Below, piece by piece: positions 1 through 15,868 of a stretch of 15,868 nt of DNA. Positions within the stretch are counted from its first letter, which is position 1. Each line of letters opens with the position of its first letter. Under the pieces are notes generated by a model, which was not told the origin of the DNA, made no database searches, and saw only the letters and a list, made by a program, of their open reading frames with translations. A program made the position numbers and the translations under genes. Source of the stretch: a virus (Duplodnaviria; Heunggongvirae; Uroviricota; Caudoviricetes); the IMG/VR virus record IMGVR_UViG_2609460059_000001. One strand, written 5' to 3'.

Positions 1-5
1 ATAAC

Positions 6-194
6 GTGGATCCGAACGGTACGATTGCGGTTCAGCGTGGGATCGGGGTTATTTCGAAAGCTGCAAATTACGGAGTTATTTATATCCAGAATAACCTTCC
101 TTATGCAGAGGCTCTTGAAAACGGTCATTCACAACAAGCGCCAACTGGCGTGTATGCCAACGCTTTTCATGGTGTTTTACAGGCTTACAAATGA
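6..194 (+). CDS. 3' end of a tail-completion / head-tail joining gene, truncated by the window start
   Basis: Frame is open from the window edge to the stop at 192-194. The stop overlaps the next gene's ATG (ATGA at 191-194), a typical translational coupling. Its position directly upstream of the tail terminator gene is the basis for the call; there is no recognisable motif. Confidence 0.4.
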   Translation: MDPNGTIAVQRGIGVISKAANYGVIYIQNNLPYAEALENGHSQQAPTGVYANAFHGVLQAYK

Positions 195-583
195 CGTTTA
201 CTGAAATCAGAAATACGGTTATTTCCAGAATGACGGCACAGACGATTATTGATGGAAAAGACGTATTGTATCCGAACGGGCCAACGTTCGATCCTTCCGG
301 TAAATTAATCTGGGCGCGGTTAAGTAATATTCCCGGGCAGGCTGGAGTTAATGAAATTGGCGCGGGGCCGGTTGTTTATCGCACGGGGATAATCATTATT
401 CAGTTATTTGTCCCCGCAGGTTCTGGTTCAAAACTCATTACTGAGACAGCCGATAAATTGCGGGAACTGTTTGAGTTTCAGGATGACGATCGTCTCAGTT
501 ACCAGGCTGTTTCCTCAATAGCCGTTGGCGAAAAGAATGGCTGGTTCCAGCTTAATCTTCAAATTCCATATCGCGCGCTCTAG
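191..583 (+). CDS. tail terminator protein (gpU-like minor tail protein)
   Basis: 130 aa, the same size as lambda gpU (131 aa), and located immediately upstream of the major tail protein gene. ATG start overlaps the upstream stop. Assignment is by synteny and size; sequence similarity to lambda U is weak. Confidence 0.55.
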   Translation: MTFTEIRNTVISRMTAQTIIDGKDVLYPNGPTFDPSGKLIWARLSNIPGQAGVNEIGAGPVVYRTGIIIIQLFVPAGSGSKLITETADKLRELFEFQDDDRLSYQAVSSIAVGEKNGWFQLNLQIPYRAL

Positions 584-609
584 CGCAATTAATGACATAG
601 GAGGCTCCT

Positions 610-1572
610 GTGAGTTCAGGTGCAAAGGTTATCTCGGCATTTATCCGGGAGACAGTTGCAGGCACTACGCCAGCAAGTGGTGACTGGAGTTTATTAAAAC
701 GAACAAGCTGGGGAGTAAAACCCACCCAGAATAAAGGCGAAAATAATGAGATTGGTGGCTCCCGGATGGCTCAGGGGGCGACGCCTGGCACTGTGGATGT
801 CGGCGGTGATGTTGGTACCAAATTTCGCTGGGGTCAACATGATGATTTTCTTGCATCCTGTTTCGGCGCGGAATGGTCAGGCGATTCTCTGACAATGGGG
901 AATGAGCGAATAACATTTTCTCTGGCGACCTATGCGTCCGATGTCGGAATTGCCTCTGTCGTCAGAGGAGCGCAGGTTGGCTCATGGAAAATGCAGATCC
1001 CTAACGACGGCGATATTACAGCGACCGTAACCTTTGCCGGGCTGGACTGGGAATCAAAGGCCGATGATACGAATTTTATCAAAGGCGAACCTGTGGATAG
1101 TGCAGGAAAGCTACGTTATTCGTTTAAGGAGGTTTCAGCAGTAAGCCTGAATGGTGTTGCCGGAGGTAACGGTTTTTGTATCGACAGTTTTGATATTCAG
1201 TTCGATAACAAACTCCAGACACAGCGTTGTATCGGGACTGGCTCGCCTTATGCAGGAGCAAATATTCCGACTACTTTTACACCGTCCGGTACGGTGACGC
1301 TTTCATGGTCTAAAGCTGCGTGGGAAATCTGGAGTAAAACACTGACTGGAGAAACAGTTCCGTTCAGCTTCACGCTTTCGAATGGAGAGGGGGCATACAC
1401 TTTCAGTTTCCCGAAGGTTCAGGTGTCAGGTGAATGGCCTGATGGGGGTAATACCGACATTATCCAGGTTCAATTGAGCATTACCGCAGCAGATGAAGCA
1501 CCTACGATAACCAGAAAAAAAGCCTCCCCGGCTGCCGTGATCGCAAAAGCCAGTGCTGAGGCGATTAGTTGA
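610..1572 (+). CDS. major tail (tube) protein
   Basis: 320-aa ORF with GTG start at 610 preceded by AGGAGG (599-604). It sits between the terminator-like gene and the G/GT chaperone pair, the conserved position of the siphovirus major tail protein. Gly/Thr/Ser-rich, beta-type composition. It does not resemble my recollection of lambda V; no search was run. Confidence 0.6.
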   Translation: MSSGAKVISAFIRETVAGTTPASGDWSLLKRTSWGVKPTQNKGENNEIGGSRMAQGATPGTVDVGGDVGTKFRWGQHDDFLASCFGAEWSGDSLTMGNERITFSLATYASDVGIASVVRGAQVGSWKMQIPNDGDITATVTFAGLDWESKADDTNFIKGEPVDSAGKLRYSFKEVSAVSLNGVAGGNGFCIDSFDIQFDNKLQTQRCIGTGSPYAGANIPTTFTPSGTVTLSWSKAAWEIWSKTLTGETVPFSFTLSNGEGAYTFSFPKVQVSGEWPDGGNTDIIQVQLSITAADEAPTITRKKASPAAVIAKASAEAIS

Positions 1573-1620
1573 TTTTCCGTTATTCCCCCTGTGGTACTGC
1601 ACTACAGGGGGGCGCATTGA

Positions 1621-2082
1621 ATGAGGTTATGGATGTTTATTCTTAATCAGAAAATTATCATCGGTGGTGAACGCTGGTTTACCCCAATGAAGGACTTAAA
1701 ACCTGTAGACGGGTTAAAACTGTTGGTGGCAAGCAGCGATAACGATCAGTATCGCTCCCGTAATGCATTAATCCGTCGCCACATTGAGAAAATGGATGCC
1801 AGTTTGCACGTCGGAACGAAGGAGTTTGATATTGCAAAGGTTTCCGAGGTGGATTCTGTTGATGATTTACTCATTGATAATGCTGCTCGTTATCTGCTGA
1901 AAGACTGGAAAGGGGTTGGTGAACTGGTTGATGGTGTTGAGGTTGCACTGGAATATACGCCAGAACGAGGGATCGCGCTGCTTAAGCAGAATCCGGAGTT
2001 GTACTGGCAGATCCTTGCAGAAGCAGCCAGCATCGCCCAGGGTAAAGAGCAGCAGAAGCAGGATACGATAAAAAAGCCATAG
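1621..2082 (+). CDS. tail assembly chaperone (gpG-like)
   Basis: 153-aa acidic ORF directly upstream of the tape measure gene. It ends ...QDTIKKP* with the slippery heptamer A_AAA_AAG at 2070-2076, just before the stop (TAG 2080-2082). Confidence 0.75.
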   Translation: MRLWMFILNQKIIIGGERWFTPMKDLKPVDGLKLLVASSDNDQYRSRNALIRRHIEKMDASLHVGTKEFDIAKVSEVDSVDDLLIDNAARYLLKDWKGVGELVDGVEVALEYTPERGIALLKQNPELYWQILAEAASIAQGKEQQKQDTIKKP

Positions 2083-2390
2083 CCGCCCAGCGGTGGTTAT
2101 CGGAGTTCGGGGGAGAAAAGGGTGAAAAGGCAAGATGGAAGCGAGAAAAACTCAGGTTGCCACCGATACCGGAACCAGAAATAGACCCGGTGCTTAAGGA
2201 ATTGTTGTACGCCTATTCGGTAATATCCCGTGCCCGACGTTATGCTGGAATGACTGGGGTGCCTTTGCCTTTATCTCTGACAGAGATAAATGAATATTTA
2301 GCCACTCATCCGGTATTGATTGAGCGCGATGAATTTGAAGCAGTGATCTTTGCACTGGATGACCAGTATTTTCAGGAGCAGTGTGTGTAG
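1621..2390 (+). CDS. tail assembly chaperone G-T fusion made by programmed -1 ribosomal frameshift (joined at 2070-2076)
   Basis: The -1 frame is open from 2070 through the 77-aa ORF ending at 2390, with no stop between 2070 and 2157 (checked codon by codon). The slippery site A AAA AAG lies in the last codons of G. The predicted fusion is about 256 aa. This G/GT arrangement is conserved upstream of tape measure genes in long-tailed phages. Confidence 0.7.
2070..2076 (+). other. -1 programmed ribosomal frameshift slippery heptamer A_AAA_AAG
   Basis: Read directly from the sequence: the zero-frame codons are AAA AAG and the -1 frame reads AAA AAA. This is the same heptamer class used in E. 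coli dnaX. Confidence 0.7.
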
Positions 2391-2510
2391 TTGTTAATTA
2401 CGTACACTCTGTTACAGAGATGTGATGGTGTCTTTAATTAAATCGATGATGCTCCTGGAGAAAAGCATTGCGTGGCCTCGTAATCGCTATATCTACTATT
2501 ATGTCGCCTG

Positions 2511-2536
2511 AAACCCACTTCGGTGGGTTTTTTGTT
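2511..2536 (+). terminator. intrinsic terminator-like hairpin in the T-H intergenic gap
   Basis: AAACCCAC (2511-2518), TTCG loop, GTGGGTTT (2523-2530), followed by TTTGTTG. 8-bp stem with a UUCG tetraloop and a U-rich tail. It lies inside the tail operon, so it probably acts as a partial terminator or attenuator. Confidence 0.5.
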
Positions 2537-2553
2537 GTCAGGAGTTTTAATAA

Positions 2554-5500
2554 ATGGCAGAGCAAACCTCGCGTCTCGCAATAATTATTGATAGCACTGG
2601 AGCGAAAAATAATGCTGACAATCTGACCTCCTCATTAGTCAAAATGACGCAGGCTGGGAAAACTGCTGCAAATAGCGCAGGGAAAGTGACTAAGGCAACA
2701 GAAGATGAGAAGAACGCGCTCGCAAAATTAAAAGCAGCTATTGATCCAGTTGGTGCCGCAATTGATACTGTCGGTCGACGCTATTCTGAATTAAAGAAAT
2801 TTTTCGATAAAGGGCTTATTGATAAAGAAGAATATGAATTTCTTGTCCGTAAACTTAATGAAACCACAGAGGAATTGAGCGGGGTTGCGCAAGCGCAGAG
2901 AGAAGCCGAGAAGGCCGGAAAACTTGCTGCCGCCCAGCAGGAAGCGCAGGCTCAGGCCTTTCAAAGAATGCTGGACAAGATCGACCCTCTGGCTGCGGCG
3001 CTAAGAAATCTTGAACAACAGCAGGATGAACTTAATGCTGCGTTTGCATCCGGGAAAATAAATGGTTCTCAGTTTGAGAATTATAGCCGAAAAATACAGG
3101 AAACACGGCGAGAGCTTACCGGAGAGGCTCAGGCAGAGCGAGAAGCAGCAAAAGCGCATGATGAACAGGTTGTTGCTTTGCAACGTCTGATTGCTCAACT
3201 TGACCCTGTCGGAACTGCTTTTAACCGCCTGACAGAGCAGCAAAAGCAACTCAGCGAAGCAAAAGCCAAGGGGATGCTTTCTCCTGAAATGTATGAGGAG
3301 CTTTCAGGAAAACTTCGTGCTATGCGGAGTGAGCTTGAGGCTACTCAATCGCAACTAAGCAAAACCGGAATGTCGGCAAAACAAACGGCTTTTGCTATGC
3401 GCATGTTGCCTGCACAAATGACGGATATTGTTGTTGGGTTGTCCACTGGTCAGTCGCCATTTATGGTGTTAATGCAGCAGGGCGGCCAGCTAAAAGATAT
3501 GTTCGGTGGGATTGGCCCGGCAATCAAAGGTGTAGGTTCTTATGTGCTGGGATTAATTAATCCTTTTACCCTGGCCGCAGCAGCCGTTGGCGTCTTAGGG
3601 CTGGCTTACTATAAAGGCTCTCAGGAGCAGAACGAATTTAATAAATCTCTTATTCTTACCGGAAATCAGTTGGGGACAACCAGCGGGCAATTGGCCGATA
3701 TAGCTCAACGTGCCGGGAATGCGGCTGATTCGACAACTGGCGCTGCGGCGGCAGTATTAAACCAGCTTGTGCGTTCGGGAAAGGTAGCGAGCAGTTCGCT
3801 GGAGCAAGTGACGACAGCGATAGTAAAAACGAGCGAAGTAACAGGAATATCAACCGAACAACTGGTTAATGACTTCAATGAAATTGCAAAGGATCCTGTC
3901 AGTGCTATATCAAAACTTAATGATCAGTACCATTTTCTGACACTTGCGACTTATAACCAAATTAAGGCGCTACAGGATGAAGGGAACCAGCAGGAGGCCG
4001 CCCGCATTGCGACAGAAGCATACTCATCCTCAATGATCCAGCGCACCAACCAGATTAAAGAAAATCTTGGTTATCTTGAGACTGCATGGAAAGCTGTCGC
4101 AGACTCCGCAAAATGGGCATGGGATTCCATGCTGGATATTGGCCGTGAGGCCTCCCTTGATCAAAAAATCTCAGATGTTCTCCGTCAAATTGATGAAATA
4201 GAAAAAAATACCCGACCCGGAGTTTTCGGGTTAGGTGGCATTGGAGATGGCGGAGCTCAAAATAAAAAGCTGGCACGATTAAAGCAGCAATTGGGCGTAC
4301 TTCAAGCAGAAAAAATTGCTCAGGACGTACTAAATTCATCAATAAACGATTACAACAAGCGACAACAGGAAGGAATTGAACTCAGACAGAGAGCAGATGC
4401 TTTTTCAAAACAATATCAGACCCGGGAGCAGCAGAGAGCTAGTGAACTTGCAAAACTGGAAAAGCTAAAGAATCAGTATTCAAAGGAAGAATATAATAAT
4501 CTTATCGCTCAAATAAATGAGCGTTACGAAGATCCAAAGCAACCAAAGGCGAAAGGTTATTCGGATGATGCTGCCCAACGAATGATTGATCATCTGAATC
4601 AACAGAATGCGTTACTAAGTTCACAAGCTGAATTGACCGTTAAATTAAGTTCCTCTGAACAGGAACTGGTTAAGTGGCGTCAGCAGATTGCCGACCTGGA
4701 GTCACGACCGTCATCGAAATTAACCCAAGAGCAGAAATCACTTCTCTTACACCGGGAAGAAATAACCGCGTTGATGGAGAAAAATGTTGCGATTGAAAAA
4801 AATAACAGGCTAATCAAAGAATCCGCCGAAATAGCCGCATGGCGTGATTCATTGCAGGCTTCGATTGATAATCGTCAGCAGGGGTATGATATTCAGATTG
4901 CTGGTTATGGGGTTGGCGATAAAAATCAGCAACGCCAGCAGGAATTACTGCGGATTGAACGTGAATATAACAATCAGCGTCTGCAACTTGAACGTGACTA
5001 TGCAGATAAATCCCGTGGAATGTCAAATCATGTTTTTCAGGAGAAAATGCAGGCTCTGAATGATGCTCTGGAACGAGAAAAAGAAATTGTCAGCCAGAAA
5101 AACGAGCAGCTCGATATTCTGGCAGGAGACTGGATTAGTGGTGCCTCCCAAGGATTCAATAACTGGCTGGATGACACTAAGGATATCGGTGCGCAGATAA
5201 AATCAACCACGACTCAGATGTTTGATGGGATGACCGATGCGCTAGGTGATTTTGTCACGACAGGCAAGGCAAATTTTCGTTCTTTCGCTACTTCCGTGAT
5301 TTCGGATCTTAGTCGAATTGCATTAAAGGCTTCAATTACTGGGATTTTCGACAGCATTAGTAACAGTTCTTCTGGGGGTATTTTAGGAACTATCGGGAGT
5401 GCTATTAGTAAATTTATTCCGAATGCAAAGGGCGGTGTTTATGAGTCTCCGTCATTGAGTACATATTCGAACGGTATTTATGACTCCCCGCAATTTTTTG

Positions 5501-5787
5501 CTTTTGCAAAAGGAGCTGGTGTTTTTGGTGAGGCTGGACCGGAAGCTATTATGCCATTAACGCGAACTTCCGATGGTTCTCTTGGTGTCAGAGCTATTAA
5601 TAGTAAAAGTGGTAATGGAGGCAGAGATATTACTTATGCCCCTGTATACCAAATCACTATTCAAAATGACGGCCAGAATGGAGAGATTGGTCCTCAGGCA
5701 ATAAAAGCACTTATGGGGATGGTTGATCAGCGGGTGCAGGGCGCTCTGTTAAATATGCGACGTGATGGAGGAATGTTAAGTGGCTAA
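2554..5787 (+). CDS. tail tape measure protein (gpH-like)
   Basis: 1077 aa. The N-terminal third is coiled-coil with three ~60-aa repeats carrying IDPVGAA / IDPLAAA / LDPVGTA motifs. A hydrophobic segment follows ([13 protein letters not shown]...GVLGLAYY). The C-terminus ([32 protein letters not shown]) is of lambda H type. RBS CAGGAG is 8 nt upstream of the ATG. Confidence 0.92.
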
Positions 5788-6118
5788 TACGGAAGAATTT
5801 TACTGGTTACCAGAGGATGGAATGAAAACAGAAAATAAGCCATCGATAAAAACTGTAAGATTTGGCGATGGTTATGAACAACGAAGCCCAAACGGACTTA
5901 ATCATTCTCTGCGTGTTTTTACCTGTGATTTCAGGGTTGAGGCGAATGAACGTAATTCATTTGAACTGTTTCTGGCTCGGCATGGAGGCTATAAATCTTT
6001 TTTTTGGCGCCCGCCGGGTATTAACAGAAAAATCAGAGTGGTGTGTCGAACGTGGTCAGCGACAGAACATATCACCTATACCGATTTTTCATGTCAGTTT
6101 GACGAAGTGGTGATCTGA
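5780..6118 (+). CDS. M: minor tail protein M (lambda gpM homologue)
   Basis: Contains [17 protein letters not shown] and [12 protein letters not shown], closely matching lambda M as recalled. The GTG at 5780 has GGAGG 8 nt upstream and overlaps the H stop by 8 nt. An in-frame ATG at 5822 is an alternative start. The stop overlaps the L start (TGATG). Confidence 0.85.
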
Positions 6119-6816
6119 TGCAGGACATACGACAGGAAACACTGAATGAATGTATCCGTGCGGAGCAGTCGGCCAGCGTGGTGCTCTGGGAAATTGATCT
6201 GACAGAGGTCGGTGGGGAGCGTTACTTTTTCTGCAATGAGCAGAACGAAAAAGGTGAACCGGTTACCTGGCAGGGGCGAAAGTATCAGGCGTACCCCATT
6301 CAGGGAAGCGGCTTTGAGATGAACGGTAAGGGCAGCAGCGCACGTCCCACACTTAAGGTATCAAACCTGCACGGCATGGTCACCGGGATGGCGGAAGATC
6401 TGCAGAGTCTGGTCGGCGGAACGGTGGTCCGGCGTAAGGTTTACGCCCGTTTTCTGGATGCGGTGAACTTCGTCAACGGAAACAGCGAAGCCGATCCGGA
6501 GCAGGAGGTGATCAGCCGCTGGCGCATCGAGCAGTGCAGCGAACTGAACGCGGTTAGCGCGGCCTTTGTGCTGTCCACGCCGACGGAAACGGATGGTGCT
6601 GTTTTTCCGGGGCGCATCATGCTGGCCAACACCTGCACCTGGACCTATCGCGGTGATGAGTGCGGTTATAGCGGTCCGGCGGTCGCGGATGAATATGACC
6701 AGCCGACGTCCGATATCACGAAGGATAAATGCAGCAAATGCCTGAGTGGCTGTAAGTTCCGCAATAACGTCGGCAACTTTGGCGGCTTCCTTTCCATTAA
6801 CAAACTTTCGCAGTAA
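6118..6816 (+). CDS. L: minor tail protein L (lambda gpL homologue)
   Basis: 232 aa. The sequence [12 protein letters not shown]...CSKCLSGCKFRNNVGNFGGFLSINKLSQ is nearly identical to lambda L as recalled, including the C-terminal Cys cluster. Same length as lambda L. Confidence 0.92.
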   Translation: MQDIRQETLNECIRAEQSASVVLWEIDLTEVGGERYFFCNEQNEKGEPVTWQGRKYQAYPIQGSGFEMNGKGSSARPTLKVSNLHGMVTGMAEDLQSLVGGTVVRRKVYARFLDAVNFVNGNSEADPEQEVISRWRIEQCSELNAVSAAFVLSTPTETDGAVFPGRIMLANTCTWTYRGDECGYSGPAVADEYDQPTSDITKDKCSKCLSGCKFRNNVGNFGGFLSINKLSQ

Positions 6817-6821
6817 ATCCC

Positions 6822-7565
6822 ATGACAGAGACAGAATCAGCGATTCTGGCGCACGCCCGGCGATGTGCGCCAGCGGAGTCGTGCGGCTTCGTGGTGAGAA
6901 CGCCGGAGGGGGAAAGATATTTTCCCTGCGTGAATATTTCCGGTGAGCCGGAGGAGTATTTCCGGATGGCTCCGGAGGACTGGCTGCAGGCAGAGATGCA
7001 GGGTGAGATTGTGGCGCTGGTCCACAGCCACCCCGGTGGTCTGCCCTGGCTGAGTGAGGCCGACCGGCGGCTGCAGGTGCAGAGTGATTTGCCGTGGTGG
7101 CTGGTCTGCCGCGGGGCGATTCATAAGTTCCGCTGTGTGCCGCATCTCACCGGGCGGCGCTTTGAGCACGGGGTGACGGACTGTTACACGCTGTTCCGGG
7201 ACGCTTACCATCTGGCGGGAATTGAGATGCCGGATTTTCATCGCGGGGATGACTGGTGGCGTAACGGCCAGAATCTCTATCTTGACAATATGGAGGCGAC
7301 TCCTTTTTACCGTGCCGCACTGACAGAGGCGCAGCCGGGCGATGTGCTGCTGTGCTGCTTTGGTTCATCGGTGCCGAATCATGCCGCCATTTACTGCGGC
7401 GACGGCGAGCTGCTGCACCATATTCCTGAACAACTGAGCAAACGAGAGAGGTATACCGACAAATGGCAGCGACGCACACACTCCCTCTGGCGTCACCGGG
7501 CATGGCACGCATCTGCCTTTACGGGGATTTGCAACGATTTGGCCCCCGCATCGACCTTCGTGTGA
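6822..7565 (+). CDS. K: tail tip assembly protein K (JAMM/MPN plus NlpC/P60 domains)
   Basis: JAMM motif HSHPGGLPWLSEAD (HxHx7Sx2D) at 7023-7064 with candidate upstream Glu residues. Downstream Cys/His (DCYTLF..., HAAIYCGDGELLHH) fit an NlpC/P60 fold. The ATG at 6822 is 5 nt after the L stop. Lambda's annotated 199-aa K corresponds to the internal Met at 6966, but that start would cut into the JAMM domain, so 6822 is preferred. Confidence 0.85.
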   Translation: MTETESAILAHARRCAPAESCGFVVRTPEGERYFPCVNISGEPEEYFRMAPEDWLQAEMQGEIVALVHSHPGGLPWLSEADRRLQVQSDLPWWLVCRGAIHKFRCVPHLTGRRFEHGVTDCYTLFRDAYHLAGIEMPDFHRGDDWWRNGQNLYLDNMEATPFYRAALTEAQPGDVLLCCFGSSVPNHAAIYCGDGELLHHIPEQLSKRERYTDKWQRRTHSLWRHRAWHASAFTGICNDLAPASTFV

Positions 7566-8110
7566 AAACGGGAGCCGAAGCTATCCGGGCGCTGGCCACG
7601 CAGCTCCCGGCGTTTCGTCAGAAACTGAATGAGGGCTGGTATCAGGTGCGCATTGCCGGGCGTGATGCAGGCGAAAACGAATTATCTGCCCGTCTTAATG
7701 AGCCGCTGGCAAATGGTGCCGTGATCCACATCGTACCGCGTCTGGCGGGTGCCAAAAGTGGCGGTGTTTTTCAGGCAGTGCTGGGGGCTGCGCTGATTGC
7801 GGTGGCATGGTGGAACCCTGTGGGCTGGCTGGGTGCCGCGGCTGTATCGGGTATGTATGCGGCAGGGGCCAGTATGATCCTGGGCGGTGTGGCGCAGATG
7901 CTGGCACCGAAAGCCAGAACTCCCCGCACACAGACAACGGATAACGGCAAACAGAACACGTATTTCTCCTCACTGGATAACATGGTTGCCCAGGGGAATG
8001 TTCTGCCCGTTCTGTACGGTGAAATGCGCGTGGGGTCACGCGTGGTATCTCAGGAGATCAGCACGGCAGACGAAGGGGATGGTGGTCAGGTTGTGGTGAT
8101 TGGTCGATGA
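7463..8110 (+). CDS. I: tail tip assembly protein I (lambda gpI homologue)
   Basis: 215 aa beginning MAATHTLPLASPGMARICLYGDLQRFG and ending NVLPVLYGEMRVGSRVVSQEISTADEGDGGQVVVIGR, lambda I-like. It overlaps the 3' end of K by 103 nt in a different frame, the same arrangement I recall for lambda. Confidence 0.85.
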   Translation: MAATHTLPLASPGMARICLYGDLQRFGPRIDLRVKTGAEAIRALATQLPAFRQKLNEGWYQVRIAGRDAGENELSARLNEPLANGAVIHIVPRLAGAKSGGVFQAVLGAALIAVAWWNPVGWLGAAAVSGMYAAGASMILGGVAQMLAPKARTPRTQTTDNGKQNTYFSSLDNMVAQGNVLPVLYGEMRVGSRVVSQEISTADEGDGGQVVVIGR

Positions 8111-8128
8111 TGCAAAATATTTTATGTG

Positions 8129-8152
8129 AAACCGCCTCCGGGCGGTTTTGTC
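8129..8152 (+). terminator. terminator-like hairpin in the I-J intergenic gap
   Basis: GAAACCGCC, TCCG loop, GGCGGTTT, then TGTCGTTT. GC-rich stem with a U-rich tail, 20 nt upstream of the J start. Possible attenuator. Confidence 0.4.
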
Positions 8153-8170
8153 GTTTATGGAGCATGACGA

Positions 8171-11100
8171 ATGGGTAAAGGCAGCAGTAAGGGGCATACC
8201 CCGCGCGAAGCGAAGGACAACCTGAAGTCCACGCAGTTGCTGAGTGTGATCGATGCCATCAGCGAAGGGCCGATTGAAGGTCCGGGGGATGGATTAAAAA
8301 GCGTGCTGCTGAACAGTACGCCGGTGCTGGACAGTGAGGGGAATACCAATATCTCCGGCGTCACGGTGGTGTTCCGGGCAGGTGAGCAGGAGCAGACACC
8401 GCCGGAGGGATTTGAATCCTCCGGCTCCGAGACGGTGCTGGGTACGGAAGTGAAATATGACACGCCGATCACCCGGACCATCACGTCGGCAAACATTGAC
8501 CGTCTGCGTTTTACCTTCGGTGTGCAGGCACTGGTGGAAACCACCTCAAAGGGTGACCGGAATCCGTCGGAAGTCCGCCTGCTGGTTCAGATACAACGTA
8601 ACGGTGGCTGGGTGACGGAAAAAGACATTACCATTAAGGGCAAAACCACGTCGCAGTATCTGGCCTCGGTGGTGGTGGATAACCTGCCGCCGCGCCCGTT
8701 TAATATCCGGATGCGCAGGATGACGCCGGACAGCACCACAGACCAGCTGCAGAACAAAACGCTCTGGTCGTCATACACCGAAATCATCGATGTGAAACAG
8801 TGCTACCCGAACACGGCACTGGTCGGCGTACAGGTGGATTCGGAGCAGTTCGGCAGCCAGCAGGTGAGCCGTAATTATCATCTTCGCGGGCGCATTCTGC
8901 AGGTGCCGTCGAACTATAACCCGCAGACGCGGCAATACAGCGGTATCTGGGACGGAACGTTTAAGCCAGCATACAGCAACAACATGGCCTGGTGTCTGTG
9001 GGATATGCTGACCCACCCGCGCTACGGCATGGGTAAACGTCTTGGTGCGGCAGATGTGGATAAATGGGCGCTGTACGTCATCGGCCAGAATTGCGACCAG
9101 TCGGTGCCGGACGGCTTTGGTGGCACGGAGCCGCGCATCACCTGTAACGCTTACCTGACTACGCAGCGTAAAGCGTGGGATGTTCTCAGCGATTTCTGCT
9201 CGGCGATGCGCTGTATGCCGGTATGGAACGGGCAGACGCTGACGTTCGTGCAGGACCGACCGTCGGATAAGGTGTGGACCTATAACCGCAGTAATGTGGT
9301 GATGCCGGATGATGGCGCGCCATTCCGCTACAGCTTCAGCGCCCTGAAGGACCGCCATAATGCCGTTGAGGTGAACTGGATTGACCCGAATAACGGCTGG
9401 GAGACGGCGACAGAGCTTGTTGAAGATACGCAGGCCATTGCCCGTTACGGTCGTAATGTCACGAAGATGGATGCCTTTGGCTGTACCAGCCGGGGGCAGG
9501 CACACCGCGCCGGGCTGTGGCTGATTAAAACGGAACTGCTGGAGACGCAGACCGTGGATTTCAGCGTGGGTGCTGAAGGGCTTCGCCATGTACCGGGCGA
9601 TGTCATTGAAATCTGCGATGATGACTATGCCGGTATCAGCATCGGCGGGCGCGTGCTGGCGGTAAACAGCCAGACCCGGACGCTGACGCTCGACCGTGAA
9701 ATCACTCTGCCATCCTCCGGTACCACGCTGATAAGCCTGGTTGACGGAAGTGGCAATCCGGTCAGCGTGGAGGTTCAGTCCGTCACCGACGGCGTGAAGG
9801 TGAAAGTGAGCCGTGTTCCTGACGGCGTTGCTGAATACAGCGTGTGGGGGCTGAAGCTGCCGACGCTGCGCCAGCGCCTGTTCCGCTGCGTGAGTATCCG
9901 TGAGAACGACGACGGCACGTATGCCATCACCGCCGTGCAGCATGTACCGGAAAAAGAAGCCATCGTGGATAACGGGGCGCACTTTGACGGCGACCAGAGC
10001 GGCACGGTGAATGGTGTCACGCCGCCAGCGGTGCAGCACCTGACCGCCGAAGTCACCGCAGACAGCGGGGAATATCAGGTGCTGGCGCGCTGGGACACGC
10101 CGAAGGTGGTGAAGGGCGTGAGCTTCCTGCTCCGTCTGACCGTAACAGCGGATGACGGCAGTGAGCGGCTGGTCAGCACGGCCCGGACGACGGAAACCAC
10201 ATACCGCTTCAGGCAGCTGGCGCTGGGAAATTACAGGCTGACAGTCCGGGCGGTAAATGCATGGGGACAGCAGGGCGATCCTGCATCGGTATGGTTCCGG
10301 ATCGCCGCACCGGCAGCGCCGTCGCGGATTGAGCTGACGCCGGGCTATTTTCAGATAACCGCCACGCCGCATCTTGCCGTTTATGACCCGACGGTACAGT
10401 TTGAGTTCTGGTTCTCGGAAAAGCGGATTACCGATATCAGGCAGGTTGAAACCACAGCCCGCTATCTTGGTACGGCGCTGTACTGGATAGCCGCCAGTAT
10501 CAATATCAAACCGGGCCATGATTATTACTTTTATATCCGCAGTGTGAACACCGTTGGCAAATCGGCATTCGTGGAGGCCGTCGGTCGGGCGAGCGATGAT
10601 GCGGAAGGTTACCTGGATTTTTTCAAAGGCAAGATAACCGAATCCCATCTCGGCAAGGAGCTGCTGGAAAAAGTCGAGCTGACGGAGGATAACGCCAGCA
10701 GACTGGAGGAGTTTTCGAAAGAGTGGAAGGACGCCAACGATAAGTGGAATGCCATGTGGGCTGTCAAAATTGAGCAGACCAAAGACGGCAAACATTATGT
10801 CGCGGGTATTGGCCTCAGCATGGAGGACACGGAGGAAGGCAAACTGAGTCAGTTTCTGGTTGCCGCTAACCGTATCGCATTTATTGACCCGGCAAACGGG
10901 AATGAAACGCCGATGTTTGTGGCGCAGGGCAATCAGATATTCATGAACGACGTGTTCCTGAAGCGCCTGACGGCCCCCACCATTACCAGTGGTGGCAGTC
11001 CTCCGGTATTTTCCCTGACATCAGACGGAAAGCTGACCGCTAAAAATGCGGATATCAGTGGCAGTGTGAATGCGAACTCAGGAACGCTCAACAATGTCAC

Positions 11101-11584
11101 GATTAACCAGAACTGTACGATTAAGGGCATGCTGGAGGCGACCCAGGTCAGAGGGGATTTCGTTAAAGCTGTATCAAAAGCCTTCCCGAAAAAAGTCGGT
11201 ACGTGGGGTAACACGGAAACACCAGACGGTACGGTTACAGTCACCATCAGCGATGATCATAACTTTGACCGCCAGATTATTATTCCGCCCATTATTTTTA
11301 ACGGTATAGCGTATGACGATCCGGGGAGCGGAAATAACCCGGGAGGCACGCGATACACGGGTTATGGTTTTGAAGTTCGCAAAAACGGCATATTAATCGC
11401 ATCCAGAGAAACTAAAGGGGCCATTCCCGGTAGTTACAGTGCAGTTATTGATATGCCTAGTGGTGGTGGTAGCGTCACTCTGGAGTTTAAGATTTTCCAG
11501 AAAGGCAATCAGGGGGCAGGCAATATCACCGACTGTACGGTGATTGTGACCAAAAAAGCGGCTTCCGGCATCAGTATTCGTTGA
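8171..11584 (+). CDS. J: central tail fibre / host specificity protein J
   Basis: 1137 aa. The N-terminus [38 protein letters not shown] is lambda J-like, as are internal regions (fibronectin-III-like segments, [17 protein letters not shown]). GGAG lies 8 nt upstream of the ATG. The last ~150 codons are visibly lower in GC. Confidence 0.95.
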
Positions 11585-11606
11585 AATATTTATAACCCCA
11601 ATAAAG

Positions 11607-11630
11607 GGCGTCAGGAATGACGCCTTTTTT
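11607..11630 (+). terminator. rho-independent terminator after J
   Basis: GGCGTCA, GGAA loop, TGACGCC, followed by TTTTTT (11625-11630). Confidence 0.8.
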
Positions 11631-11654
11631 ATTGCAGAAAAGCGAGAGGTAATT

Positions 11655-12254
11655 ATGCGTAAAGTTTGTGCAGCAATTTTGTCCGCAGCCATTTGTCTGG
11701 CCGTATCCGGTGCGCCTGCATGGGCGTCTGAACATCAGTCCACGCTGAGCGCGGGGTATCTTCATGCCTCGACGAACGTCCCCGGCAGTGATGATCTGAA
11801 CGGGATTAACGTGAAATACCGTTATGAGTTTACGGATACGTTGGGGCTGGTGACGTCATTCAGCTATGCAGGAGACAAGAATCGCCAGCTGACCCGTTAC
11901 AGCGATACCCGCTGGCATGAAGATTCCGTTCGTAACCGCTGGTTCAGCGTAATGGCGGGGCCGTCTGTGCGCGTGAATGAATGGTTCAGCGCGTATGCGA
12001 TGGCGGGTGTGGCTTACAGCCGTGTGTCGACTTTCTCCGGGGATTATCTCCGCGTAACTGACAACAAGGGGAAAACGCACGATGTGCTGACCGGAAGTGA
12101 TGACGGTCGCCACAGCAACACGTCTCTGGCGTGGGGAGCTGGCGTGCAGTTTAACCCGACCGAATCCGTGGCCATTGATATTGCTTATGAAGGCTCCGGC
12201 AGTGGCGACTGGCGCACTGACGGTTTCATCGTGGGTGTCGGTTATAAGTTCTGA
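11655..12254 (+). CDS. lom: Lom outer membrane protein (Ail/Lom/OmpX family beta-barrel)
   Basis: 199 aa with an N-terminal signal peptide (MRKVCAAILSAAICLAVSGAPAWA). The C-terminus IAYEGSGSGDWRTDGFIVGVGYKF matches lambda Lom as recalled, as does the internal GINVKYRYE motif. The gene sits between J and stf as in lambda. Confidence 0.9.
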   Translation: MRKVCAAILSAAICLAVSGAPAWASEHQSTLSAGYLHASTNVPGSDDLNGINVKYRYEFTDTLGLVTSFSYAGDKNRQLTRYSDTRWHEDSVRNRWFSVMAGPSVRVNEWFSAYAMAGVAYSRVSTFSGDYLRVTDNKGKTHDVLTGSDDGRHSNTSLAWGAGVQFNPTESVAIDIAYEGSGSGDWRTDGFIVGVGYKF

Positions 12255-12281
12255 TTAGCCAGGTAACACAGTGTTATGACA

Positions 12282-12307
12282 GCCCGCCGGTTCAGGCGGG
12301 CTTTTTT
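12282..12307 (+). terminator. rho-independent terminator after lom
   Basis: GCCCGCC, GGTTCA loop, GGCGGGC, followed by TTTTTT (12302-12307). Confidence 0.8.
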
Positions 12308-12318
12308 GTGGAGTGGAT

Positions 12319-14697
12319 ATGGCAGCAGTAAAAATCTCAGGTGTGCTGAAAGATGGTGCGGGAAAACCAATACAGAACTGCACTATTCAACTGAAGGCAA
12401 AGCGTAACAGCACCACGGTACTGGTGAACACGGTGGCCTCTGAAAATCCGGATGAAGCCGGACGTTACAGCATGGATGTTGAGTATGGCCAGTACAGCGT
12501 CACCCTGCTGGTTGAAGGTTTTCCGCCTTCACATGCCGGGACCATTACCGTCTATGAAGGTTCCAGACCAGGTACGCTGAATGATTTTCTCGGCGCCATG
12601 ACGGAAGATGATGTCATGCCGGAGGCATTGCGTCGTTTTGAGGAAATGGTGGAAGAAGCGGCACGCAACGCTGAAGCCGCCTCTCAGAGCGCAGCGGCGG
12701 CAAAGAAATCCGAAACTGCAGCGGCATCATCGAAGAACGCGGCGAAAACCTCAGAAACGAATGCAGCTAACAGCGCACAGGCGGCAGCGACCTCACAGAC
12801 TGCATCGGCAAACTCCGCGACAGCAGCCAAAAAATCAGAAACCAACGCGAAAAACAGCGAGACAGCCGCAAAGACGAGCGAAACCAACGCAAAGTCCAGC
12901 CAGACGGCAGCGAAGACCAGCGAAACGAATGCCAAAGCCAGTGAAACTGCGGCAAAAAACAGCCAGGTTGCAGCAGCCCAAAGCGAGAGCGCGGCAGCCG
13001 GTTCTGCGACTTCAGCAGCTGGATCAGCAACTGCTGCGGCTAACAGCCAGAAAGCTGCGAAGACGAGTGAAACTAACGCAAAGTCCAGCCAGACGGCAGC
13101 GAAGACCAGCGAAACGAATGCCAAAGCCAGTGAAACTGCGGCGAAAAACAGTCAGGATGCTGCAGCCCAAAGCGAGAGTGCCGCAGCTGGTTCTGCAAGT
13201 GCGGCGGCTTCTTCTGCCACTGCATCAGCCAACAGTCAAAAAGCTGCAAAAACCAGTGAAACCAACGCAAAGGCGAGCGAGACTGCGGCGGCTAACTCGG
13301 CGAAAGCATCCGCTGCAAGCCAGACGGCTGCAAAAGCAAGTGAAGACGCAGCCAGAGAGTATGCAAGCCAGGCTGCGGAGCCGTATAAACAAGTTTTGCA
13401 GCCGCTTCCAGATGTGTGGATACCGTTTAACGATTCACTGGATATGATTACGGGCTTTTCGCCATCATATAAAAAGATTGTTATTGGTGATGATGAAATA
13501 ACGATGCCTGGTGACAAGGTTGTTAAGTTTAAACGCGCATCGAAAGCAACCTATATTAATAAATCTGGTGTACTGACAGAGGCTGCCATTGACGAGCCGC
13601 GATTTGAACGTGATGGCCTGCTTATTGAGGGGCAAAGAACTAATCTTCTGCTTAATTCAACAAATCCATCTAAATGGAATAAGTCAGGCAATCTGGAACT
13701 CACAGAAATATCCACGGATTATTTTAATTTTACTTATGGGAGATTTACTGTAAAAGATACTCTTATTGATCAGACAAGTGCGATTAATATCGTAACGGTT
13801 TCTGGCAGTAAAGGATTTGATGTCACAGGTGATGAAAAATATGTGACCATTTCATGCCGTGTCAGAAGTGATGTTGAAAATATAAGGTGTCGTTTAAGAT
13901 TTGAACATCATGATGGTTCTACTTACACTTTTTTGGGAGATGCTTACCTCAATTTATCAACACTTGTAATTGATAAGACTGGTGGTGCAGCAAATCGTAT
14001 TATTGCAAAGGCTGTAAAAGATGAGGCTACTGGTTGGATTTTCTATCAGGCTACAATTAATGCACTAGATACAGAGAGCATGATTGGTGCGATGGTTCAA
14101 TATGCTCCAGTAAAAGGTTCAGGCACAGCATCTGGAGACTATCTGGATATCGCAACTCCACAAGTGGAAGGTGGATCAAGTGCTTCGTCATTTATTGTAA
14201 CTGATATAACTGCAAGCACTCGCGCAAGCGATATGGTGACAGTCCCAATCAAGAATAACCTTTATAATCTTCCTTTTACGGTTCTTTGTGAGGTACATAA
14301 GAACTGGTATAAAACGCCAAATGCAGCGCCACGTGTTTTTGATACCGGTGGTCATCAAACCGGAGCGGCTATTATTCTTGGCTTCGGTCGTTCAACAGAT
14401 TATGACGGATTTCCTTATTGCGATATTGGAGGAGCTAACAGACGGGTAAACGAAAACGCATTGCTTGAAAAAATGGTTATGGGGATGCGTGTAAAGTCAG
14501 ATCAGTCTACGTGCTCAGTAAGTAACGGGCGTATATCCAGCGAAACAAAAGCCACATGGTCCTATATTCAGAACACCGCAATTATCCGTATTGGAGGCCA
14601 GACTACAGCCGGGTTACGTCATTTATTTGGTCATGTCAGGAATTTCAGAATATGGCACAAGGCATTGACTGATGCTCAGGTGGGGGAGTTAATCTAA
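12319..14697 (+). CDS. stf: side tail fibre protein (Stf-like) with a non-lambda distal domain
   Basis: The N-terminus MAAVKISGVLKDGAGKPIQNCTIQLKAKRNSTTV...GQYSVTLLVEGFPPSHAGTITVYEG is lambda Stf-like. The shaft is built of Ala/Ser/Thr-rich heptad repeats (xSETNAx). The distal ~430 aa is AT-rich and ends GHVRNFRIWHKALTDAQVGELI, reminiscent of the C-terminal signature of Laminin_G_3 / ConA-like lectin domains. The ATG at 12319 has GGAG 5 nt upstream; the longest ORF starts at GTG 12313. Confidence 0.85.
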   Translation: MAAVKISGVLKDGAGKPIQNCTIQLKAKRNSTTVLVNTVASENPDEAGRYSMDVEYGQYSVTLLVEGFPPSHAGTITVYEGSRPGTLNDFLGAMTEDDVMPEALRRFEEMVEEAARNAEAASQSAAAAKKSETAAASSKNAAKTSETNAANSAQAAATSQTASANSATAAKKSETNAKNSETAAKTSETNAKSSQTAAKTSETNAKASETAAKNSQVAAAQSESAAAGSATSAAGSATAAANSQKAAKTSETNAKSSQTAAKTSETNAKASETAAKNSQDAAAQSESAAAGSASAAASSATASANSQKAAKTSETNAKASETAAANSAKASAASQTAAKASEDAAREYASQAAEPYKQVLQPLPDVWIPFNDSLDMITGFSPSYKKIVIGDDEITMPGDKVVKFKRASKATYINKSGVLTEAAIDEPRFERDGLLIEGQRTNLLLNSTNPSKWNKSGNLELTEISTDYFNFTYGRFTVKDTLIDQTSAINIVTVSGSKGFDVTGDEKYVTISCRVRSDVENIRCRLRFEHHDGSTYTFLGDAYLNLSTLVIDKTGGAANRIIAKAVKDEATGWIFYQATINALDTESMIGAMVQYAPVKGSGTASGDYLDIATPQVEGGSSASSFIVTDITASTRASDMVTVPIKNNLYNLPFTVLCEVHKNWYKTPNAAPRVFDTGGHQTGAAIILGFGRSTDYDGFPYCDIGGANRRVNENALLEKMVMGMRVKSDQSTCSVSNGRISSETKATWSYIQNTAIIRIGGQTTAGLRHLFGHVRNFRIWHKALTDAQVGELI
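12871..13248 (+). repeat. in-frame tandem duplication of a 189-bp (63-aa) unit inside the stf shaft, itself built of degenerate 21/42-bp sub-repeats
   Basis: Two copies at 189-bp offset. The first ~75 bp are near-identical (aagacgag(c/t)gaaac(c/t)aacgcaaagtccagccagacggcagcgaagaccagcgaaacgaatgccaaagccagtgaaactgcggc) and the rest has scattered substitutions. The protein copies read KTSETNAKSSQTAAKTSETNAKASETAAKNSQ(V/D)AAAQSESAAAGSA... Confidence 0.85.
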
Positions 14698-14978
14698 TGA
14701 AAGATTTAACACTCAAATTTGTCGACAGGGCCGACTTTTCGGCCTTTATGGAGAGTATCGGCTATTATGATGATGAGTCGATGCAGGATGATATTCTTAT
14801 TGACGTGATAGGTAACGTGTACAAAGAAACCGGAGAACTTACCGAAGATGGCGAGCCGGTATGTGTTAAGGAAGACGGATATTTTGTAAACGTGCGCATC
14901 ATTAATGATGCAAAAAAATCGTCAATATTCGATGAATACGTGGTTGCTGTTGAGCATCAACTTCGTGGCTGGATGTGA
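14697..14978 (+). CDS. hypothetical acidic 93-aa protein, translationally coupled to stf (possible fibre chaperone or accessory protein)
   Basis: The ATG overlaps the stf stop (TAATG) and GGGGGAG lies 8-9 nt upstream. Low GC like the stf distal domain. Very acidic (D/E-rich). No recognisable family; it occupies the position of tfa but does not resemble lambda Tfa. Confidence 0.5.
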   Translation: MKDLTLKFVDRADFSAFMESIGYYDDESMQDDILIDVIGNVYKETGELTEDGEPVCVKEDGYFVNVRIINDAKKSSIFDEYVVAVEHQLRGWM

Positions 14979-14987
14979 GGAAGAAAA

Positions 14988-15671
14988 ATGGCTACATCGA
15001 CAGTAATTCCTGAAGACATCAAAACGCTAAAATCCGACGTTAGCAAATTAAAAAACGATCAAGGAAGCTACGCAACAAAATCATATGTAGACAGCAAAGA
15101 TGAAACCGTTGGTGACTGGTCTGCTTCATGGTATCAGCAGGTATTGCCAACTAGCGGAGCTATATTTGGGAGAAAACTCCGCTCAACTCACAGGACGGCA
15201 GGTGTTGAGGATGCGTATTGCGAACTATACCTCAAAAAATGGATAGACAGTCCAGGTAACGCAATGGCGCGCCTTAACCTGAACGATAACGGGACAAACA
15301 TTTGCTGGGACTTTACCAACCTTTATGGCGGTACGATGATTTTTCCCGGTGACAGCGGATACCTCAAAATGGGTAACTGCCTTATGTCATACAGTAAGCG
15401 TGGAAGTAACGCGCTTATTAAATTTGATTACACCGACACATTACAGATCAAATATGCCAATCATGGGTCAACCATGACATTAAACACACAGGGAACCGCT
15501 TATGCTGGTGTTACTGCTCAATTGTGGGGCAACTCCAGCCGTCCTGTTGTTTATGAAGTCGGTGTTGATGGTGGCGCTTATATGTTCTATGCGCAGAAAA
15601 CTACCAGCAATACCTACGAATTAACGGTTAACGGCGCGTGCAATGCAAGTGCATCAAACCCGGTTGTATGA
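14988..15671 (+). CDS. hypothetical 227-aa protein, possible tail-fibre-associated adhesin or moron
   Basis: RBS GAGGAAG 4 nt upstream of the ATG. The N-terminus has a short coiled-coil-like stretch (PEDIKTLKSDVSKLKND) followed by a Gly/Asn/Thr/Tyr-rich region typical of beta-rich receptor-binding domains. Low GC. The last 7 codons and the stop lie inside the left arm of the palindrome. Confidence 0.5.
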   Translation: MATSTVIPEDIKTLKSDVSKLKNDQGSYATKSYVDSKDETVGDWSASWYQQVLPTSGAIFGRKLRSTHRTAGVEDAYCELYLKKWIDSPGNAMARLNLNDNGTNICWDFTNLYGGTMIFPGDSGYLKMGNCLMSYSKRGSNALIKFDYTDTLQIKYANHGSTMTLNTQGTAYAGVTAQLWGNSSRPVVYEVGVDGGAYMFYAQKTTSNTYELTVNGACNASASNPVV

Positions 15672-15868
15672 AGATCACTGGCGTCCAATGGAAGTCGCTT
15701 TTGGTCAGCAAGGTTACAGCGAATATTTTGACGCATAAAACTGTCAAAATATTCGCTGTAACCTTGCTGACCAAAAGCGACTTCCATTGGACGCCAGTGA
15801 TCTTCATACAACCGGGTTTGATGCTCTGGTTCGAGGCCCATCAGAATAAAATTGCGCACCAGATCGGC
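15614..15868 (-). CDS. possible 3' end of a convergent minus-strand gene, open to the window edge; real extent uncertain because it reads through the palindrome
   Basis: The minus-strand frame is open from the window edge to the stop at 15614. Across the right arm it encodes protein-like sequence (...ADLVRNFILMGLEPEHQTRLYEDHWRPMEVAFGQQGYSEYFD...). The part read across the left arm is just the inverted copy and may not be genuine coding sequence. Confidence 0.25.
   Translation of the reverse strand, partial: ADLVRNFILMGLEPEHQTRLYEDHWRPMEVAFGQQGYSEYFDSFMRQNIRCNLADQKRLPLDASDLHTTGFDALALHAPLTVNS
15651..15824. repeat. perfect inverted repeat / palindrome: 82-bp arms (15651-15732 and 15743-15824) around a 10-bp non-symmetric spacer (15733-15742, gcataaaact)
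   Basis: Checked base by base: every position i in the left arm is complementary to position 31475-i in the right arm, with no mismatches. The symmetry breaks at 15650/15825. Confidence 0.95.

Follow-up and report, generated by a model that had tools for sequence, protein, structure and literature searches.

The window, which here means the whole stretch of 15,868 bp that was analysed, is the entire contig JFFL01000161.1 (GCA_000599765.2) of the Illumina draft of Escherichia coli JA23, an isolate from a sepsis patient (PMC4271156). It carries the tail module of a lambdoid prophage, comprising genes for a tail terminator, a tube protein, chaperones, a tape measure, gpM-, gpL-, gpK-, gpI- and gpJ-like proteins, Lom and an N-terminal Stf protein; these are followed, in the right-hand part, by a gene for a 93-aa protein and by the 5′ two-thirds of a tail-fibre gene. 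At the point where this last gene breaks off, the sequence enters a long and perfect palindrome (Table 1).

The palindrome consists of two 82-nt arms that match each other with zero mismatches and enclose an asymmetric centre, giving 174 bp in all; coordinates, mismatch count and loop are all as given in the original prediction. If one mismatch is allowed (15650/15825), the arms grow to 85 nt (15648–15732 and 15743–15827). No other exact inverted repeat of at least 20 nt is present in the window. For the palindrome as single-stranded DNA, a folding energy of −110 kcal/mol is predicted, compared with −22 ± 3.7 in shuffled sequences (z = −24), which excludes a chance origin. Two further observations of the original prediction are likewise borne out: a 227-aa ORF ends within the left arm, with its stop at 15671, and an open frame on the minus strand extends from the right arm to the window edge, 44 nt past the arm. 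Because the window is the entire contig, the palindrome stops 44 nt short of a physical contig end; for the same reason, the original prediction erred in stating that the repeat 'does not simply run off a contig end'.

Table 1. Features of the window, with emphasis on its right-hand end. L002 denotes the locus of E. coli CFT073 that served as the native DUF262 reference.
Feature	Position	Strand	Length	Basis or remark
Genuine lambdoid prophage tail module	1–15654	+		PacBio match, Pfam content
Chimeric 227-aa ORF	14988–15671	+		Stop inside left arm
Junction 1, GCAT microhomology	15651–15654		4 nt	Common to tail-fibre gene and inverted DUF262 copy
Left arm of palindrome	15651–15732		82 nt	CFT073 DUF262 bases, minus strand, by BLAST
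Fold point, inverted repeat TGAC-N10-GTCA	15729–15746			Strand flip; native identity with window begins at 15729
Fragment of DUF262/GmrSD-type restriction gene	15729–15868	−	140 nt	100% identical to CFT073 L002 3997–4136
Loop gcataaaact, asymmetric	15733–15742		10 nt	Native DUF262, identical in CFT073 L002 4001–4010
Right arm of palindrome	15743–15824		82 nt	Native DUF262/GmrSD sequence

The tail module in JA23 and in related prophages

JA23 has been sequenced on two platforms, using DNA from two separate extractions (PMC4271156). The Illumina data come from a TruSeq library that was run on a MiSeq (2 × 250) and assembled with the A5 pipeline; at 28×, coverage was the lowest among the six strains of the study (PMC4271156). 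The PacBio RS data were assembled with HGAP2 into three contigs (JMJB00000000; PMC4271156). An exact look-up of the 792-aa Stf protein returned two contigs only, namely JFFL01000161.1 and JMJB01000001.1, the 4.89-Mb PacBio contig of JA23. The locus on the latter, referred to as L004 below, allows the Illumina contig to be compared with an independent assembly of the same strain.

Over 2319–15654, the two assemblies of JA23 differ at four of 13,336 bases. The Illumina contig has CC at 7302–7303, C at 7545 and G at 10293, where the PacBio assembly has GG, A and C, respectively. At all four positions, the PacBio base is common to seven or eight related prophages and the Illumina contig is the outlier, from which it follows that the Illumina contig has other likely base errors besides its foreign tail. 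These differences are located inside the gpK/gpI-like and gpJ-like genes and are probably errors of the Illumina assembly. At the opposite end of the contig, bases 1–600 match six related prophages at 100% identity; these were retrieved by a look-up of the tape-measure protein and belong to other strains, the JA23 PacBio assembly not being among them. The left end is therefore native from base 1, and a foreign tail is found at the right end only.

Two minor observations concern the interior of the module. In 6822–8110, the ORFs for a gpK-like protein (247 aa) and a gpI-like protein (215 aa) overlap by approximately 100 nt; several related prophages have shorter calls for them, at 199 and 182 aa. 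Either strain variation or differing gene calls may underlie this. Within the gpJ-like gene (8171–11584), a 674-aa open frame is present in antisense orientation (8771–10795, minus strand). No gene is called at this position in any locus examined, and the frame is most likely a shadow ORF.

The tail-fibre gene is complete in the related prophages. In its intact form it spans 1041 bp and encodes a 346-aa protein that has a Peptidase_S74 domain at its C-terminus and is annotated in related prophages as 'tail fiber domain-containing protein'. This intact gene is present in JA23 PacBio (L004), in a related prophage locus (L001; the CP145513 prophage, at about 2.45 Mb) and in seven other loci. In the Illumina contig, it is cut at codon 223: residues 1–222 of the 227-aa ORF are those of the native tail-fibre protein, while residues 223–227 (SNPVV) and the stop codon come from an inverted copy of a DUF262 gene. 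By exact-sequence look-up, the 227-aa product is on record for JFFL01000161.1 only. The 'convergent junction behind the tail fibre genes' described in the original prediction is thus nonexistent, the supposed gene before it being a truncated form of a longer one.

Past 15654, the PacBio assembly continues through the 346-aa Peptidase_S74 tail fibre into a 96-aa ORF, cdtA, cdtB, cdtC, a hydrolase gene and an omptin gene. Related prophages have the same order 3′ of the tail-fibre gene, with a small ORF and then the cdtABC toxin genes; L001 and the seven other loci with the same tail fibre all continue natively past 15654. The true end of the tail-fibre gene is marked by a small terminator-like hairpin, GGGGCCGAGCGCCCC, followed by GTTTTATT (L004 13717–13731). 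As an aside, cdtA, cdtB and cdtC (L004 14556–16656) are the genes for cytolethal distending toxin and are found in the prophage about 0.8 kb past the tail-fibre gene. Next come genes for an alpha/beta hydrolase and an omptin; the Illumina contig breaks before the cdt genes.

Source of the arms and anatomy of the junctions

The sequence 15733–15868 has 100% identity to a chromosomal gene that is annotated as DUF262 / GmrSD restriction endonuclease; of 5426 complete E. coli genomes, 1308 have this gene, each in one copy. In CFT073, this donor gene is found at about 5.16 Mb, in the setting hsdS-symE-GmrSD/DUF262-rpn-yjiN. When the tail of the contig is aligned to CFT073 by BLAST, 15729–15868 matches on the plus strand, and 15651–15732 matches on the minus strand (L002 4011–4092). 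The left arm thus consists of the bases of the right arm on the opposite strand, which identifies it as the foreign arm. Between the two junctions, 15655–15728 reads as the DUF262 piece in reverse complement, an orientation in which it is foreign to both loci. The original prediction had advised searching each arm separately for its native context; the right arm is native in the DUF262 gene, and the left arm is non-native. The same prediction described the minus-strand frame as protein-like. The frame does come from a real gene (DUF262/GmrSD), but from one at an unrelated chromosomal locus, of which it represents a 140-nt fragment.

At the first junction, four nucleotides, GCAT, occur both in the tail-fibre gene and in the inverted copy of DUF262. 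Past gcaagtgcat, the native tail fibre reads ttaatcaagg, whereas the window reads caaacccgg; the reverse complement of DUF262 at this point is ...agagcatcaaaccc. The second junction is the fold point, across which the native DUF262 gene reads ttttaccgtcagataatgac gcataaaact gtcaaaatattcgc (...gataatgac gcataaaact gtcaaaata...). The inverted repeat at the fold is perfect over 4 bp, and an imperfect extension has six of eight matches (ATaaTGAC / GTCAaaAT). Two traits by which fold-back products can be recognised are seen here: within the span of one read, the sequence passes from one strand of a locus to the opposite strand of that locus, and the switch takes place at a natural short inverted repeat or microhomology (TGAC/GTCA at the fold, GCAT at the other junction).

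Since the junctions share just 4 nt with native sequence, no k-mer or read overlap can bridge them without reads that contain the junctions, and we infer from this that a chimeric molecule existed. A purely computational misjoin made from normal reads, with no such molecule, is in comparison highly improbable. De Bruijn assemblers can make hairpin-like contig ends, and a misjoin would fit this behaviour. It would also fit the report by the authors of A5 that contigs are extended with SSPACE and that the IDBA stage 'occasionally' misassembles (PMC3441570). However, a shared stretch of 4 nt is too short for assembler k-mers, which are tens of bases long, or for an SSPACE overlap. Furthermore, k-mers over 15728/15729 depart from native DUF262 at several positions, more than a single read error can account for.

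Two side observations relate to the donor piece. The contig ends in ...AGATCGGC (15857–15868, ...CACCAGATCGGC), and the TruSeq adapter likewise begins with the 7 nt AGATCGG. An adapter remnant was considered and rejected, because the bases at the contig end are native DUF262 sequence and identical in CFT073, which continues with cctgactt; the motif may be a coincidence, or it may have influenced the trimming of reads there. In CFT073 (L002 2685–4778) and in strain 214-4 (L022 2185–4278), the donor gene is split in two, a CDS named 'GmrSD domain' and a pseudogene (DUF262, 'missing C-terminus'). Most of the 140-nt piece falls into the unannotated gap between these parts; its overlap with the pseudogene is limited to a few bases at the start of the latter.

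Occurrence of the junctions in other assemblies and genomes

On the tail-fibre side, the PacBio assembly of JA23 is native past 15654, and neither DUF262 sequence nor a junction k-mer is found in the 9 kb that follow. The last 669 bases of the contig were also compared with 5,426 complete E. coli genomes. All tail-fibre matches end at 15654, and no genome among the 5,426 covers the query in full. The fold point is spanned in none of these genomes (0/5,426), and the same is true of the tail-fibre/DUF262 junction (0/5,426); in those that bear DUF262, the two halves of the fold query match separately and on opposite strands. Exact searches with a 38-mer for the fold junction (GCGAATATTTTGACGCATAAAACTGTCAAAATATTCGC) and a 31-mer for the other junction returned no match for either in GTDB species-representative genomes and JGI metagenome contigs.

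Recurrence as a conserved prophage element was thus not observed in the E. coli genomes, GTDB, JGI or the eight related loci. The original prediction held that the same palindrome in independent assemblies of related prophages would mark a conserved structural element; it was found in none of those searched. Nor is a chromosomal copy with unique sequence on both sides seen, as the PacBio assembly is without the palindrome and the right flank in the contig amounts to 44 nt. It is very unlikely that the palindrome is part of the E. coli JA23 genome. The original prediction was right to expect that E. coli would not maintain a perfect palindrome as large as this one. As a refuting test, it had named long molecules that run from one arm into different sequence. 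At the level of the long-read assembly, the outcome lies on the side of an artefact.

With the left arm not in the genome, the readings of the palindrome as a terminator, an RNase III stem, an invertase site or a recombination site all fail. A functional genomic element is accordingly scarcely conceivable, whether as an RNase III stem, as a barrier to transcription from both sides or as a site at which a nuclease or recombinase would act in tail-fibre exchange. The predicted hairpin is extremely stable, and the region behind tail-fibre genes is known for module exchange, both of which would suit such an element. Yet the left arm is missing not only from JA23 PacBio but from every related prophage, an unrelated restriction gene is the source of the arms, which come from its coding sequence, and there is no conservation in any collection searched. 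A simple scan, in which loops of 3–8 nt were allowed (the loop of the palindrome has 10 nt), reported no terminator-like site at the palindrome. By eye, no T-run is present on either side, in keeping with the earlier remark that a U-tract is lacking, and the true gene end already has a small terminator-like hairpin of its own. An invertase gene was found neither in the window nor in the 9 kb downstream in L004.

Two specific candidates were rejected on these grounds. An intrinsic or bidirectional terminator is incompatible with a gene end that is itself chimeric and has no T-run, the true end in L004 having its own hairpin; an invertase switch of the Pin/Gin/Cin type is incompatible with arms that are 10 nt apart and derived from a DUF262 gene, with no invertase nearby. 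Three of the explanations put forward in the original prediction, namely a fused pair of convergent genes, an RNA stem or transcription barrier, and a recombination target for tail-fibre exchange, need a palindrome in the genome, and each founders on the intact tail-fibre gene that the PacBio assembly has at this place.

This picture is complicated by the possibility of a real rearrangement in the culture from which the Illumina DNA was prepared, be it clonal or sub-clonal. Such an event would involve a template switch during replication, at the TGAC/GTCA quasi-palindrome in the DUF262 gene, leading to an inverted duplication, and then a microhomology-mediated join to the tail fibre. Microhomology junctions together with a fold-back at a short inverted repeat also mark template switching in vivo, the Illumina and PacBio DNAs were extracted separately, and the assembler chose the chimeric path over the native one. 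Nevertheless, a rearrangement in vivo is distinctly improbable. The PacBio assembly of JA23 shows the native arrangement, neither junction is present in any other genome searched, and a perfect palindrome of 174 bp survives poorly in sbcCD+ E. coli. In addition, the contig stops 140 nt into DUF262, whereas a clonal event should run on through the single-copy neighbourhood; a stop at this position suggests a conflict with the genuine DUF262 path or the exhaustion of reads. To join loci at about 2.45 Mb (CP145513) and 5.16 Mb (CFT073) in vivo would, moreover, need a large inversion or deletion, of which no other trace was seen. The more specific proposal of a real, probably sub-clonal fold-back in vivo, with an 82-bp inverted duplication in the GmrSD-type gene joined to the tail fibre, is very improbable. 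If true, it would represent a bacterial complex microhomology-mediated rearrangement caught before its removal by SbcCD.

Proposed formation of the palindrome and comparison with known systems

In the explanation that we favour, with a probability of roughly 0.9, the palindrome is a chimeric library molecule that was kept by the assembler and now forms a stub, 214 bases long, at the end of an Illumina draft contig. That it is an artefact of one kind or another is more probable still. The palindrome is without biological function and is an artefact of a known kind; a fold-back artefact of library preparation or assembly, which was also among the candidates of the original prediction, is supported by the comparison with PacBio and by the anatomy of the junctions.

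The chimeric molecule would have arisen from a single-stranded DUF262/GmrSD end that paired at TGAC-N10-GTCA, intramolecularly or with the end of a sister fragment, during the construction of the shearing-based TruSeq library or during its PCR. Extension of the paired end by a polymerase would then yield a strand that runs through the gene, round the 10-nt loop and back over the same 82 nt. By a further join, at the 4-nt GCAT microhomology, this fold-back would become linked to a piece of tail-fibre gene from the prophage. At 28× coverage, A5 would finally have kept the chimeric read or reads at the tip of the prophage contig, where the chimeric tail of 214 bases is shorter than one 250-nt read. 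The low coverage, the place at a contig tip and the short tail are indirect hints of an origin from one or a few molecules. The stop 140 nt into DUF262 may reflect exhaustion of the chimeric read or k-mer path, the point at which the genuine DUF262 locus is rejoined, or a cut by the misassembly check of A5. We infer both the library step that produced the chimera and the assembler's reason for keeping it.

Chimeras of this type have precedents. In shearing-based libraries, chimeric reads have been described that consist of the original strand and its adjacent inverted complement and are seeded at natural inverted repeats (PMC10908179). According to the PDSM model, partly single-stranded ends pair and are then filled in during end repair; the model also predicts joins in trans that resemble true fusions (PMC10908179). 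The quality control of A5 breaks scaffolds near misassemblies, at a breakpoint that is not well defined, and the A5 paper gives no k values (PMC3441570). Extension by SSPACE, a misassembly in the IDBA stage or a break of this sort could each account for the stub. A numerical observation may be added: 15868 − 15728 is 140 nt, as for a de Bruijn tip with k = 141 in which the chimeric path rejoins the DUF262 path, and the contig end could be such a tip.

Several points weigh against a library chimera. A molecule with two chimeric junctions, 74–78 nt apart, is rarer than one with a single fold-back; the inverted repeat at the fold is perfect over only 4 bp (6/8 in its imperfect form); the assembler followed the chimeric path in place of the true continuation of the tail fibre; and the separate extractions for Illumina and PacBio formally leave room for a real event specific to one culture.

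Perfect palindromes and inverted repeats are known from several other settings. Genuine long palindromes in E. coli are substrates of SbcCD and have the same form, with perfect arms and a short spacer. They sit in the chromosome, however, whereas the JA23 palindrome is missing from the long-read assembly of the same strain. Inverted repeats are also linked to tail-fibre genes in the Gin/Cin/Pin/Hin systems, where they flank a kilobase-scale segment with alternative fibre C-termini and an invertase gene lies adjacent. In contrast, the JA23 arms are separated by 10 nt, derive from a restriction gene and have no invertase nearby.

Other parallels are themselves artefacts of sequencing or library preparation. 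Fold-back reads on the PacBio platform arise from missed adapters and contain artificial inverted repeats, usually with kilobase arms. Inverted chimeras from multiple displacement amplification (MDA) were reportedly described by Lasken and Stockwell in 2007, and palindromic artefacts of ancient-DNA library preparation are said to have been reported by Star et al. in 2014. Both resemble the JA23 palindrome in folding back at a microhomology of a few bases and in producing perfect palindromes with short loops, but the likeness is mechanistic only; neither MDA nor degraded DNA is reported for JA23 (PMC4271156). Ligation-based nanopore libraries yield inverted-repeat chimeras that are made during library preparation and mimic structural variants, as the palindrome does (PMC13141652). 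These come from another platform and usually have kilobase arms, while the JA23 contig is Illumina-only.

The closest parallel is provided by the IVS-type chimeric reads, in which, as in the palindrome, the native strand is followed by the adjacent inverted complement of the same locus and the switch occurs at a natural short inverted repeat (PMC10908179). These artefacts belong to ligation-type libraries from sheared DNA that undergoes end repair, and chimeras in trans are predicted for them (PMC10908179). They differ in that they were described from human capture data, as a minority of soft-clipped reads (PMC10908179), whereas the palindrome is part of a deposited bacterial contig; furthermore, the JA23 palindrome has a second junction, in trans, and a seed that is perfect over only 4 bp. 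It can serve as a clean worked example of a chimeric molecule, seeded by an inverted repeat, that survived into an assembled bacterial contig.

The palindrome has no biological significance, and its value concerns data quality. The GenBank record JFFL01000161.1 holds 214 chimeric bases, through which a bogus, truncated 'tail fibre' of 227 aa has entered protein collections. In genome scans, perfect palindromes less than one read length from the end of a draft contig should first be checked against the native contexts of their flanks and against a long-read assembly. A last observation relates to the record itself: the announcement gives 62 contigs for the Illumina assembly of JA23 (PMC4271156), yet the contig with the palindrome is number 161 of JFFL01. 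It seems that the record in version GCA_000599765.2 differs from the table in the announcement, or that it holds more and smaller contigs.
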